Positions 20,090 to 43,155 of a DNA stretch of 64,000 nucleotides are shown here, in pieces. Each line of letters opens with the position of its first letter. The first letter of the stretch is position 1. A model generated the notes under the pieces. It saw only the letters and a program-made list of their open reading frames with translations. It had not been told where the DNA came from and ran no database searches. The position numbers were made by a program, and so were the translations under genes. Where the stretch lies: assembly GCA_951406725.2 (NCBI GenBank), contig OX597827.1:868001-932000 (forward strand), written 5' to 3'. This stretch comes from Octopus vulgaris (Eukaryota).

Positions 20090-20845
20090 GACCAGTTGTA
20101 TTTGGTTATACAGCTATTGTGTGGTTCTGACGCTTTTGCGCCCACTGCAGACGTGCCCGTCGATGACGATCCGTGATGATGGGATCCTTAGGTGGACGTC
20201 GACAAGACAGACTGAAAGATCTCAACCGGTGCTGAACTGTCTCTTCATAAATGGGTCTGTGGTGAGTCCCTATGATCTGCCTAGTTGATTCCGTTGCCTT
20301 CTGGAATCGGTCCTGCAAATGCTGACGGTGCAGATGGCGATCTGGACATACTGTTGTAACCCTCACTGCGTTGACGATCATTGTATCGTTTCTTAATCCA
20401 CTCAATTGTCCAAAAACTGCAGTTCAAGTCATTAGCAATGACCCATGTACGTTGACCAGCATGGAGACATCAGATGGCTTGCACCCTCTGATTTCGTGTC
20501 AGTATTGGCATGCTGGCTACGTTCGGAAAATTTGGGTATCTTTTATACCGAATCGGTAAATTTGGGTGCCTTTTATAGTCAGTGAGTTAACGTTTTGCAT
20601 GTGCACCATACTTTTCATAAAGATGCATTCAAGAGTATTACCATGTTCACGAAAAGTGAGCGAGTTCGAACTTTACATGCAATCTTTCTGCTTTCCAAAA
20701 GCAGTGATGTTGTGGGCCAATGACATCTTCCTGATGTCAAGTTACCAAGAAATATGATAGAATCCATATGATCTCAATATCGTATGTGAAACAAATAATC
20801 TTTTACTGTGCGACGTCTTTTTTCCTTTTTTTTTGTAGTTCAGTG
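20090..20845 (-). pseudogene. Tc1-like transposon 5' portion (N-terminal transposase remnant)
   Basis: ORF 20106-20405 RVTT..DRHL...DRFQKATE...ETVQHRLR....CRRP...PIITDRHRRARLQWA is typical of the Tc1 HTH region; putative TIR start TA|CACTGAACTACAAAA at 20845. Confidence 0.75.
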
Positions 20846-20902
20846 TATATATATATATATATATATATACTTTATTTAAAGCAGCAGAAAATTCAACAAA
20901 AT

Positions 20903-20940
20903 CTGTTACTCTGAGTTTCTCGTTGCCGTTCATCAGACAG
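20903..20940 (-). ncRNA. Minimal type I hammerhead ribozyme (Penelope pLTR-type), near intact
   Basis: CTGT-CTGATGA-ACG-GCAA-CGA-GAAA-CTC-A-GAG-TA-ACAG; complete core, GUA cleavage triplet, stem I extends to about 13 bp with one mismatch, AATAAA about 25 nt downstream. Confidence 0.8.
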
Positions 20941-21005
20941 TTTTTGTTAGAAAACTGTCTGATGAACTGTCTGTCTAACAAAAACTGTCTGATGAACGGC
21001 AACGA

Positions 21006-21945
21006 CGACCTCACGTAACTTGCCCGACGACCTCACGCAACACACCCTTCTATTTGCCGACGATATCAAACTGGTCGCTCCTCGCGGTAGTATAGAGGAT
21101 CTTCGTCGATGCCTCCACCAAATTTGGAAGTGGTCTAACGATTGGGACCTGTGTCTGAACGTGTCAAAGTGCTGTCATCTGCCTGTCGGCTCTACTCCTG
21201 CAACTCAACTTGATTTCGAGCCGGGTCGTCTGCTGCTGGAGAGGACCGATCAGGTAAAGGACCTGGGTATCTTGGTGGATTCCTCCTTTTCGCCTTCGGC
21301 CCAGTGCGTCCATGCTGCCAACAAAGCGCGCGGAATTCTGTTTTTGATTCGACGGTCATTCGGAGTGCTCACAGCAGCCATATTCCTGCCACTCTATGTC
21401 ACGCTGGTGAGACCCATATTGGAGTATGGGATTCAAGCCTCTTCTCCTTATCTCCTCAAAGATATACAGCACCTCGAAAGAGTCCAGAGGCTGGCTACCC
21501 GCCTGGTTCATGGTCTCAAAAATTTGTCCCACGAAGAAAGGCTGAGGACGCTCGACCTTTATTCTCTTGAAAAACGCCGCCGCCGTGGTGATCTCATTCT
21601 CGCCCACAACATCATAAGCGGGAAGTGTAACCTCTCGAAAGAGCTGTTCTTCACTCCTGCTCCGGAGCGTCGGCTGCGGGGTCATTCCGAAAAGCTCTAC
21701 CTGCGACGATTTCATCTCAATCGAAGGAGAGGAGCTTTCTCCGTCCGGGTTGCGGATCCGTGGAACAAGCTGCCAGATGAGATGGTGAAGATGCCAACGA
21801 CCGCTTTGTTCAAAGCCTCCCTGGACCACAAGTGGCCTGAACTCTTTACATGAACACCACCCTGTACTTAACTCCATGTCCCCCTACATGGCCTTGCTAT
21901 TTGCTTTTGAGCCAAATTAACTAACTAACTAACTAACTAACTAAC
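21006..21945 (+). mobile_element. 5'-truncated CR1-clade LINE with (CTAA)n tail
   Basis: Contains the ORF2 C-terminal fragment, a short 3' UTR and a (CTAA)n tail at about 21918-21945; GC-rich relative to flanks. Confidence 0.9.
21020..21853 (+). CDS. CR1-type LINE ORF2 C-terminal fragment (RT FADD motif to C-terminus), uninterrupted
   Basis: LLFADDIKL, KDLGILVD, LYVTLVRPILEY, LERVQRLATR, RRRRGDLI, RGHSEKL, FSVRV..WNKLP. Confidence 0.85.
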   Translation: MPDDLTQHTLLFADDIKLVAPRGSIEDLRRCLHQIWKWSNDWDLCLNVSKCCHLPVGSTPATQLDFEPGRLLLERTDQVKDLGILVDSSFSPSAQCVHAANKARGILFLIRRSFGVLTAAIFLPLYVTLVRPILEYGIQASSPYLLKDIQHLERVQRLATRLVHGLKNLSHEERLRTLDLYSLEKRRRRGDLILAHNIISGKCNLSKELFFTPAPERRLRGHSEKLYLRRFHLNRRRGAFSVRVADPWNKLPDEMVKMPTTALFKASLDHKWPELFT

Positions 21946-22036
21946 TCAGAGTAACAGATTTTGTTAAATGTTCTGCTGCTTTAAATAAAGCATATTACTC
22001 TACCACTGGTATTTGAGTACTCTTTTTTTCCACCTT

Positions 22037-22134
<98 letters not shown>

Positions 22135-22346
22135 CATGCATGTATGTATGTATGTATGTATGTATGTATGTATGTATGTATGTATGTATGTATGTATGTA
22201 TGTATGTATGTATGCATGTATGTATGTATGTATGTATGTATGTATGTATGTATGTATGTATGTATGTATGTATGTATGTATGGTGAAATGAAACACTAGA
22301 GTCTAAAGAGACTAGTGATGGTTAATGGCCGCAAATAATAAATATA

Positions 22347-22576
22347 AAATGTTCACCAGATGGAGTAATTTATTTTGCAGGAGGAAGACAATTTAACGTT
22401 TCGGGTGGAAATCCATCGTCAGTGTCAGATAAAATGTTTTCAATAGTGCTGAGTAACAAAAATAGATTCAGCAACATCAGAAAATAATTTATTTCTTTGA
22501 TGAGGAGTTTCCCACGAAACGTTACATTTCTTTTCTTCCTTACGACAAAACAACCTACACCAATTGGTGAACATCT
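22347..22576. repeat. Diverged inverted repeat with a hammerhead-like motif in each arm
   Basis: Left arm (minus) CTGACGA-TGGATTTCCACCC-GAAACGTTA; right arm TTGATGA-GGAGTTTCCCAC-GAAACGTTA; outer ends ATGTTCACCA / TGGTGAACAT. Confidence 0.55.
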
Positions 22577-22714
22577 TGCATTTCATCTTGAAATCGTAAT
22601 GGCAGCTTTAGTCATCATCACAATCACTAATATTATCGGAAACATTTTCTTTGGGAGTGTTCTTTAATATAAAGCTGCTCAATGTGGGTTTATGGTCACC
22701 TTCTGCAAGATATA

Positions 22715-29681: not shown

Positions 29682-31152
29682 GAATTAGACCAAAGCCAAA
29701 CTTACAAATACTTAGGAATCCATGAACTAGATAAGACACAACACACACAAATGAAAGAGAAAATAAAAAAAGAATATTATAGACGAGTTAGATCAATACT
29801 AAAAACAGAGCTCAATGCTAAAAACAAGATAATAGGTATCAACACTTTAGCTGTCCCAGTTATAAGTTACAGCTACAATATCCTTAACTGGACACGAAAT
29901 GAGCTGACCAAAATAGATAGGAAAACAAGAAAAGTAATGACAGGATCTAGGATGCATCACCCAAAATCTGACATAGAAAGACTATATATACAACATATAG
30001 AAGGTGGTAGAGGCCTTATACAGCTGGAAAACTACTATAAAATAACCACCATAGGACTGCAAAAATATCTACTTCAGAAGGAAGGAAAACTGATACAAAT
30101 AGCGGCAAAACACGAGCAAAACAAAAAAACTATTCTCAGTATTTAAGGAAGCTGACAAATACAAACAAGAAATCATACCACCTAATAAACATGAAGAAGA
30201 AGAAGAAGAAGAAGATGAAGAAACAACAAAAGCTATAAAACAAATGAAATCCAAACTAAAAATAGAACAGCAACGAACCATGATAAAACGATGGCAAGAA
30301 AAGCCCCTTCATGGTAAATACTGGACTAAACTAAACGCAAAAGAAATAGACAAAGAAAAATCCCAGCAATGGCTGAGAAGCTCAGGACTCAAAGCAGAAA
30401 CAGAGGGATTTTTAATTGCAGCACAAGATCAAAGCCTCCCCACCAGAAATTACCAAAAACATGTAATGAAAAGAAATATTACAAGTAACTGCAGAATATG
30501 TGGAGATGGACAAGAAACAATAAATCATATTATCTCTAGCTGCCCAGTCCTGGCTAAGAAGGAATATATTCACAGACATGACAGAGTTGGAACCTACATA
30601 CATTGGAAGCTATGCCAACATTATGGAATAACAACAGAAAAAAGATGGTATAGGCACACACCAGAAAAGGTCACAGAAAACGAGAAAGCAACCATACTCT
30701 GGGATATGCCGATACACATAGATAGAGAAATTAAGGCCAACAGACCAGATATATTTGTCAGAGATCATGAAGAAAAAAATGCTTTCTAATTGATGTATCA
30801 ATACCGGCAGATGACAACGTGTCTTTAAAAGAAATGGAGAAACTTTCAAAATACAAAGACCTGGAAATAGAGGTAACTAGAATGTGGAATCTGAAAACAG
30901 AAACAATTCCTATCATAGTAGGTGCATTAGGCATGATAAAAAAATATTCAGACAAATACATAACAAAAACACCAGGACTTACAAACACATATAACATACA
31001 GAAAATTGCACTACTAGGCACTGCACACATCCTACGCAGAACACTTTCCATACAATAACCATCAGAGCATCACAACAAATCACAGCACATACCCAAGGCA
31101 CACAGAGCTGCGCTCGGTAGTGAAGTGAAAGCACGCTATAAAAATAAAACTA

Positions 31153-41679: not shown

Positions 41680-43155
41680 CCAGGTTGGCAGATTCTATCT
41701 CCATATTACATCATTAATTTGATACTTGTCCAATCATTGCTGAATTGTTTATTCTTTATTTTCACATATAAGATAGGAACATAAATTGTTTATCCCTTTT
41801 TTTTATAGCTTTGAGCGGTGAAAAAATTGCAATTCAAGTCTGTGGGAAAAGAGGACTACAAAGGTAGCGGCGAAAACAAAACAAAAAAATTAATGATGTG
41901 GAAGGCCCAGGAACTCGATGAACGTTTGGCACAAAAGTGGTTCGGACGTTTCAAGAAACGTGACATTAGCTTCGAAGACAAACCATGGTTAGGGAGACCT
42001 TCTGTTGTGGAAGTCGGGGCCTTGCTTGAAATAGTTGAACAATGGCCAAGCACAAGCACTCATACATTGTCGGTGGACCTTGGTACTTCACAAAGCATCA
42101 TCCATCGACACCTCTTTAAACCCGGCTTTGTAAACAGACGTTGTCGAGCATCTCTGCATGAATTGACCATTGACCAGGCTCACCGACATGTGAGAATTTT
42201 CAAACAACTGCTGGCAAGTCCTGCTCATGTCCATTTTTGGCGTCGAACTGTAACTGGAGATGAAAAAGGAATCTATTTTCCTAATCTTAATAAGAAAAAT
42301 CAGTGGCTTCGTTCCAGGCAAGCTTTAGAACTTGTGGTGAAACAAGGGCGGTTTGGACAGAAGGTTATGCAGTGTGTTTGGTGGAAACGCTTGCTGCAGA
42401 TGGTTATTCTGCATGACGAGGAGTGGCTGTGTGGTAAGTAGCTTGCTTACCAACCACATGGCTCCGGGTTCAGTCCTACTGCGTGGCACCTTGGGCAAGT
42501 GTCTTCTACTACAGCCTCGGGCTGACCAAAGCATTGTGAGTGAATTTGGTAGACGGAAACTGAAAGAAGCCCGTCGTATATGTGTGTGTGTGTGTTTCCC
42601 CCCCACCATCACCATCGCTTGACAACCGATGTTGATTTGTTCACGTCCCTGTAACATAGCGGTTCGGCAAAAGAGACCGATAGAATAAGTACTAGGCTTA
42701 CAAAGAATAAGGTCCTGGGATCGATTTGTTCGACTAAAGGCGGCGCCCCAGCATGGCCGCAATCAAATGACTGAAATAAGTAAAACAATAAAAGAATATG
42801 ATGCTTTGAAAACCGATTATCTGGCTTTCAAAGCACTCCGACATTATGACAACGTTCCAGCGCACACTGATTACAACCCCCTCCGATCAGATTACAATCC
42901 CCCCATCCTGAGCTATGGTATATTCCCCACACGGATGGAGGTCCAACAAAGTGGATGAGGTTGAAAACGAGTGCTTGGGGGATCATTTTGCCCCTAGAGT
43001 CTAGTGCTATAAGCGTAGAATCGAGCTCTGGCACACTGTGATTGCAACAACAGACAATAGGGCATGATGGGATATATATACGCTGATGAATCCACGCTTT
43101 GCGGATGTAATTAGTTTGAGCTGTTAATGAAAGCTTGAAGAACCTTTCAACCTGG
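41680..43155 (+). mobile_element. Mariner-family transposon interrupted by a SINE
   Basis: TA|CCAGGTTG ... CAACCTGG|TA ends; ORF 41818-42441 QKWFGRFK...EDKP..GRPS...VTGDEK...KVMQCVWW; HYDNVPAH after the SINE. Confidence 0.85.
42419..42797 (+). mobile_element. CORE-type SINE family 3, full length, nested in mariner
   Basis: tRNA-like head TGGCTGTGTGGTAAG...GGTTCAGTCC, CORE-like CACCTTGGGCAAGT, A-rich tail. Confidence 0.9.

Follow-up and report, generated by a model that had tools for sequence, protein, structure and literature searches.

Two copies of a hammerhead-like motif face outwards from each other in a 64,000-nucleotide window of the Octopus vulgaris genome (GenBank assembly GCA_951406725.2, contig OX597827.1, positions 868,001 to 932,000 of the forward strand), and one of them is split through its GAAA core by a LINE. 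How did this composite arise, and does the LINE favour ribozyme or cruciform sites, a question that the first-pass annotation of the window had raised?

Anatomy of the locus

The features of the locus are collected in Table 1, in which the first C of the 81-nt arm of the Penelope-type element (PLE) is arm position 1. The left arm (20870-20950, minus strand) is identical to the commonest sequence of the PLE family. As the first-pass annotation had it, the inverted twin starts at 20975, with a match to arm positions 1-31, and is taken up again at 21943 lacking only the GA of GAAA; the restart is at position 34, G32 and A33 being the sole loss from the right arm at an insert of 937 bp (21006-21942). 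The same annotation correctly placed the end of the LINE tail on an AACT microhomology with no target-site duplication (TSD), AACT at 21943-21946 being shared between the (TAAC)n tail and the target, and its extra partial copy at 20951-20967 corresponds to arm positions 7-23. A second short arm copy (positions 10-16) lies at 20966-20972 within the centre, and centre fillers of this templated type also occur at loci L030, L077 and L079. Of the PLE tail's 72 nt, 54 are present on the right arm and none on the left, and the inverted pair is flanked by (TA)12 on one side and by (CA)31, (TA)n and (TATG)n on the other. The PLE copy in the window contains no ORF.

Table 1. Features of the PLE/LINE locus (window positions)
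Feature	Positions	Strand
(TA)12 microsatellite, left target of the PLE	20846..20869	
Left PLE arm, tail-less 3' end, positions 1-81, with hammerhead-like motif	20870..20950	-
Centre filler of short templated arm copies (positions 7-23, 10-16)	20951..20974	+
Right PLE arm, positions 1-31, same sequence as left arm	20975..21005	+
Extra nucleotides at LINE 5' junction, copied from LINE 21028-21039 (11/12); 3-nt CGA microhomology ahead of them	21006..21017	+
5'-truncated CR1-like LINE; end of ORF2 (stop 21853), short 3' UTR, (TAAC)7 tail 21918-21946	21018..21946	+
Right PLE arm, positions 34-81, 2 private substitutions	21943..21990	+
PLE tail, 54/72 nt, equal to the 5' UTR ahead of the ORF in full-length copies	21991..22044	+
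(CA)31, (TA)n and (TATG)n microsatellites, right boundary	22041..22282	

The arms belong to a young Hydra-clade PLE family, as judged from sequence

The arm forms the 3' terminus of an element that has a reverse transcriptase (RT) together with a C-terminal GIY-YIG domain. In longer copies, ~1.2 kb of 3' UTR lies upstream of the arm and is preceded by a single ORF running from RT to GIY-YIG, in a unit of ~3.4 kb. Intact full-length Hydra-clade ORFs are present in L149, L151 and L155, those of L151 and L155 being 710 aa long when counted from the first in-frame Met common to the copies. The latter two carry the Hydra-clade motifs RWK, DKT, CxxC and CxH, with CxCX5C seen in L151, where the motifs read RLRWKAF (RWK), SDKTRN (DKT), CNCKNESSC (CxCX5C), CRLC (CxxC) and CRH (CxH). 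Comparison by eye with the Hydra alignment further revealed a YRDD RT motif and a C-terminal VVYRAKV...YTG in L151, L155 and L149, and a Pfam search gave no match to the PLE protein of the family. The pLTRs of L151 and L155 are arranged in tandem, and in L151 the 72-nt tail lies after the 5' pLTR and before the ORF; consequently, the next unit has the tail as its 5' UTR.

Elements of the Hydra clade are described as having RWK, DKT, a CxCX5C linker and CxxC and CxH around conserved E and N within a single ORF from RT to GIY-YIG, with a stated preference for insertion into (TA)n, a hammerhead near the 3' end, inverted 5'-truncated copies and a tail at one end (Craig et al. 2021, PMC8557442). 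The octopus PLE is alike in all of these respects, and (TA)n flanks nearly all copies of the family. It differs from the clade in its longer 3' UTR, its tail of 72 nt as compared with 30-40 nt, its 2-bp stem II behind an A·A mismatch, and its thousands of near-identical copies. By eye, long protein motifs are common to the octopus PLE and both Hydra-1_Obim and Hydra-2_Amil, and its hammerhead is much like the one in the supplement entry just ahead of Hydra-1_Obim, which by file order would be Hydra-2_Amil. Hydra-1_Obim itself, listed with a (TA)n preference (PMC8557442 supplement), has another hammerhead and a clearly different protein, and by this comparison the octopus PLE is a different family.

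The exact 30-nt hammerhead core occurs in 3,754 copies in the 2.8-Gb genome and its reversed control in none, and the arm thus exceeds chance as a repeat; at least 42 perfect matches to the full-length arm were listed (40 of 495 candidates scored). Taken by their sequence, the inverted arms are the Penelope-type pLTR ends of a young Hydra-clade PLE family, and the earlier reading of the arms as Penelope pLTRs is borne out by the element with RT and C-terminal GIY-YIG upstream of the arm. Literature searches returned no description of this Hydra-clade family, which is very young, equipped with intact ORFs and apparently undescribed. Assignment to the Naiad clade was dropped, as the endonuclease sits C-terminal, and a non-LTR retrozyme was ruled out, as the arms are inverted ends of a coding PLE and not tandem non-coding hammerhead units.

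Several loci of the family have features of their own. L151 (G000:C1:64214200-64222500) consists of two near full-length units in inverted orientation, 99.8% alike. L089 (G000:C1:4677794-4680823) holds two mini inverted pairs with 730 bp between them, in one of which both arms carry an A>G change just ahead of the core. A subfamily with CTAG for CTAA at arm positions 1-4 is represented at L089, L100, L106, L159 and L161, and its arms are repeatedly joined at the CTAG palindrome, forming perfect MITE-like palindromes.

The hammerhead-like motif

In the left arm, CUGAUGA is found at 20936-20930 and GAAA at 20919-20916, with the predicted cut between 20907 and 20906. Helix I comprises 4+8 bp, helix III is the near-palindrome ACUC-A-GAGU, and the predicted cleavage triplet is GUA. 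The core of a type I hammerhead (CUGANGA, GAAA, NUH, helices I and III) is thus present. The G10.1-C11.1 pair that closes helix II in this type is absent, helix II consisting of two pairs (C-G/G-C) with a GCAA loop behind an A·A at 10.1/11.1. The same A·A was found in 141 of the 150 motifs of the fetched loci, and among the first 100 of 3,952 relaxed matches 90 were identical and none had G-C. Across these copies the mismatch is evidently the standard form of the family and not decay; the first-pass annotation gave the coordinates of the left arm (20870-20950) correctly, but its term near-intact is misleading. Related motifs with U·U at 10.1/11.1 and an AUUA loop, or with A-U and a GGAA loop, were also observed (G000:C1:53518564-53518598, L209, L244), and there are hints in the sequences that the 2-bp helix II may be conserved across subfamilies despite the varied 10.1/11.1 positions and loops.

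Metazoan PLE type I hammerheads likewise reside in pLTRs and have a small palindromic helix III suited to a dimer, and opposite-strand hammerhead pairs, 100-700 bp apart, have already been reported from Schistosoma (Cervera and de la Pena 2014, PMC4209133). They differ in having a highly conserved G10.1-C11.1 pair and a long helix II, both absent in the octopus arm, and in vitro they are reported to cut weakly and only as dimers (PMC4209133). Rfam searches of the whole window and of 20840-22620, even at E<=10, returned no hammerhead family, only microsatellite and hairpin noise. In folding predictions, the monomer MFE structure (-12.2) blocks the core, the active fold having -7.5, and for two molecules the MFE fold (-26.6) is a double hammerhead; the proposal that stem III suggests a dimer thus agrees with prediction.

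A genomic footprint of cleavage was sought in the starting points of the copies. Twelve of 30 copies examined (45 matches) start exactly at the predicted cut site, position 45, as compared with 9 of 25 examined at control position 48 and 12 of 30 (38 matches) at control position 42. There is no clear excess over these two controls, and starts at the cut site were rejected as evidence of activity. Read from the copies, every PLE arm was evidently copied through an uncut motif. At the PLE/LINE locus itself, the intact left copy in a minus-strand read-through RNA is predicted to lie in a hairpin with the first 31 nt of the right arm (-66.9 kcal/mol, z -10.9). With the right copy broken and the left predicted to be locked in this hairpin, a functional ribozyme is unlikely to be produced from the locus. 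The A·A at 10.1/11.1 throughout the family provides a natural experiment on the need of PLE hammerheads to cut.

Formation of the inverted pairs

Among 99 PLE loci, 53 distinct outward-facing pairs were found (the PLE/LINE locus included, a few probably duplicated). The tail is confined to one arm in 47 of these 53, the tail-less arm ending at 81 and the tailed one at ~153 (P=6e-9 against 0.5). In nine close pairs the tail-less arm extends >3 nt further 5' than the tailed arm, with zero overlap between the arms in two of them (L104, L108), and in the long pairs L146, L148, L149 and L152 the tail-less arm likewise reaches further 5'. Since neither arm contains the other, fold-back of a single cDNA cannot yield both, and the non-nested arms would favour priming on both strands over fold-back. 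Arms that are non-nested and non-overlapping are hard to obtain from one folded cDNA and are consistent with two-strand priming as performed in vitro by PAc, a Poseidon element of Anolis (Frangieh et al. 2024, PMC11167929). In PAc, the tail is set by a pair of internal RT start sites, both strands are cut and extended, a dimer is predicted, and the insertion substrate is uncleaved RNA. The two fixed 3' ends of the octopus PLE fit this two-start pattern. PAc differs in belonging to another clade and in having its start sites within the ORF, whereas those of the octopus PLE lie in the 5' UTR, and mini inverted pairs are not described in the accessible portions of the paper.

The 5' ends of the arms were compared in a sample (n=109) that is biased against short arms and in which long ends are limited by indels: 47 fall at -6..+2 (42 of them at -2..+1), 6 at -39..-7, 41 are longer and 15 shorter. 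The sequence at the pile-up is CCATTCT, with A at -2, and fits an initiator consensus. Run-off at the RNA 5' end is the preferred reading of the pile-up; a splice acceptor was dropped as its cause, as the AG is downstream of the ends and is missing from one subfamily. We tentatively propose, at odds slightly short of even, that the many mini inverted pairs of the family, the PLE/LINE locus included, are integrated run-off cDNAs: a PLE dimer would prime both target strands at two fixed 5' UTR sites of one uncleaved transcript, both cDNAs ending where transcription starts, at an initiator-like site that precedes the hammerhead core by 16 nt. If this is true, twin priming and the start site are recorded afresh thousands of times in the genome, and the family spread with a hammerhead that lacks the G10.1-C11.1 pair.

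One-sided tails and inverted 5'-truncated PLE copies were already known (PMC8557442; PMC3846280), and for PLE inverted repeats self-priming on an antisense template had been proposed (Arkhipova 2013). In a literature search for Penelope and twin priming, the latter term was not found in the matching papers. The octopus copies bear on the question of how PLE inverted repeats originate.

The LINE and its junctions

Full-length copies of the LINE are ~5.7 kb long and contain ORF1 and an APE-RT ORF2. In L252 (G000:C10:25692200-25698900), a near full-length copy with an intact ORF2, the latter matches PF03372, PF14529 and PF00078; Pfam gave no match on ORF1. Another near full-length copy, L254, has a 495-aa ORF1 frame. 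Exact LINE 3' ends number 2,525 genome-wide and have (TAAC)n tails. The CR1-clade features present are an ORF2 with APE endonuclease and RT, a short 3' UTR and a tandem-repeat tail, together with a C-terminal RGH..KL...WN.LP signature that we take to be CR1-like, and the CR1 label appears fair as an assignment by features, not by tree. CR1-group LINEs and zebrafish ZfL2 share the APE-RT ORF2, short 3' UTR and tandem-repeat tail as well as 5' truncation, microhomology and templated extra bases (PMC4760211); the octopus LINE is set apart from the group by an ORF1 without a Pfam match and is placed in the clade by features only. Recent CR1 activity has been reported for Octopus vulgaris (PMC13282606).

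The copy in the window begins at 21018 and, when set against 23 copies, shows 3 private changes in 900 nt. The LINE is accordingly young, as first described, and the interruption of the right arm by a CR1 of ~940 bp was likewise correct, the label again by features. At its 5' junction, a 12-nt templated filler (11/12 copy of LINE 21028-21039) is combined with CGA microhomology, and microhomology and templated extra nucleotides are reported as standard at zebrafish LINE junctions (PMC4760211). Among the 44 LINE copies in which both ends are visible, ~5 lie in recognisable repeats and have blunt ends or 3-6 nt overlaps. By their sequence features (short microhomologies, templated extra bases, no TSD), both junctions of the window copy thus look ordinary. 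A related LINE subfamily lies inside or beside another PLE-bearing locus, ~1.2 kb from the arm (L073:1818-2750).

Origin of the composite

We hold with high confidence that the locus is a two-armed mini insertion of the young Hydra-clade PLE in a TA repeat, and that the young CR1-like LINE most likely struck its right arm afterwards, in a single chance event. The anatomy of the PLE insertion is observed directly, and its mechanism may be pictured as follows. The PLE protein likely nicked both strands of the (TA)n site, and two cDNAs would have been primed on uncleaved RNA, from arm position 81 and from ~153 (the end of the tail). Both likely ran off near +1, probably the RNA 5' end, and, following a few abortive templated extensions (20951-20974), would have been linked head to head. 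The LINE would then have entered through target-primed reverse transcription, in which the exposed AACT strand paired with its (UAAC)n tail, and its 5' end would have been joined via CGA microhomology and the 12-nt templated filler with the loss of 2 bp. In arm numbering only 2 nt separate the two halves of the right arm, which supports the order of PLE first and LINE later. The ages overlap (3 changes in 900 nt for the LINE, 2 in 214 nt for the PLE arms) and say nothing about which came first.

A preference of the LINE for hammerhead or cruciform sites would have mattered, and it was addressed genome-wide. PLE sequence was found in the ~1.5 kb flanks of 0 of 59 other LINE loci, and the exact PLE/LINE junction is unique in the genome. 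Searches for a LINE tail followed within <=30 nt by hammerhead sequence in sense returned the PLE/LINE locus only, and those in antisense, or with sequence further down the arm, returned none; the patterns were exact-match and covered arm positions about 15-68. The flanks of the LINE are diverse and AT-rich, 28 of 59 beginning with ATA or TAT and 12 of 59 lying directly in microsatellites. Tabulation of the CR1 flanks, which the first-pass annotation had recommended, thus gave no enrichment in the hammerhead repeat, the flanks being random apart from microhomology. The number of LINE hits expected by chance is 0.10 in the 30-nt core (P>=1 0.10) and 0.43 in 120 nt, for a site that was chosen because it was hit, and the landing in the core is not clearly more than chance. 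With 0 further core insertions among 2,524 LINE ends, enrichment is bounded to less than ~30-fold; the bound does not extend to a weaker preference, and nothing suggests one for the arm. Recurrent insertion at one target, by which sequence-specific LINEs are recognised, was not seen. What speaks for a preference is the one core insertion against 0.10 expected and the ability of the centre to fold as a stable DNA hairpin (-43.3 kcal/mol); the 24-nt centre is, however, not a perfect palindrome, and the insertion lies 31 bp inside the arm. Together with the searches and the diverse flanks, this makes a preference for hammerhead or cruciform sites very improbable, and site-specific targeting of them, which the first-pass annotation had raised as a question, is largely refuted. 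Nested insertions are routine in a repeat-rich genome.

Insertion of both elements in a single event is improbable, though a little less so. The cDNA of the tailed arm would have stalled at GAAA, switched to LINE RNA via AACU microhomology, copied 930 nt and joined a filler copied from the left arm. Both families are young with overlapping ages, the centre already shows repeated template jumps, and PLEs in Adineta are reported to capture unrelated sequence between pLTRs (PMC3846280). LINE-free PLE arms starting at positions 31-32 (L011, L077) also indicate that a break at GAAA can arise during PLE insertion. However, this route needs a filler that ends by coincidence 2 nt before the restart of the right arm, whereas the LINE has a normal tail and a typical LINE 5' junction, and the genome-wide junction searches yielded no other LINE within an arm. 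An assembly chimera joining repeat copies from different places is the most remote of the alternatives. All 24 public runs listed consist of short-read contigs; in the five different runs that were compared over 20640-22040 or 20925-21050 (four on each stretch), with joints near the tail skipped, none spans the locus-specific centre or the LINE 5' junction, and no empty allele was seen. The lack of such a contig in four public runs would fit a chimera, but contigs built from short reads are lost or interrupted at hairpins and repeats, and other individuals may be their source. Moreover, both LINE junctions are biologically typical, the halves of the right arm are in register, and similar centres occur at many other loci.

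Other features of the window

Microsatellites dominate the output of a repeat finder run on the whole window, and a Pfam scan of 60 of the 130 listed window ORFs gave 3 matches, all to transposon remnants. A Tc1 transposase remnant adjoins the inverted pair (20109-20423, minus), and remnants of an L1/Tx1-type zf-RVT and of a mariner element lie at 30103-30786 and 41815-42438, respectively. An older outward-facing pair of hammerhead-like cores, of a different family, is found 350 bp to the right of the PLE/LINE locus, at 22394-22422 (minus, CUGACGA...GAAACGUUA) and 22497-22524 (plus, UUGAUGA...GAAACGUUA).
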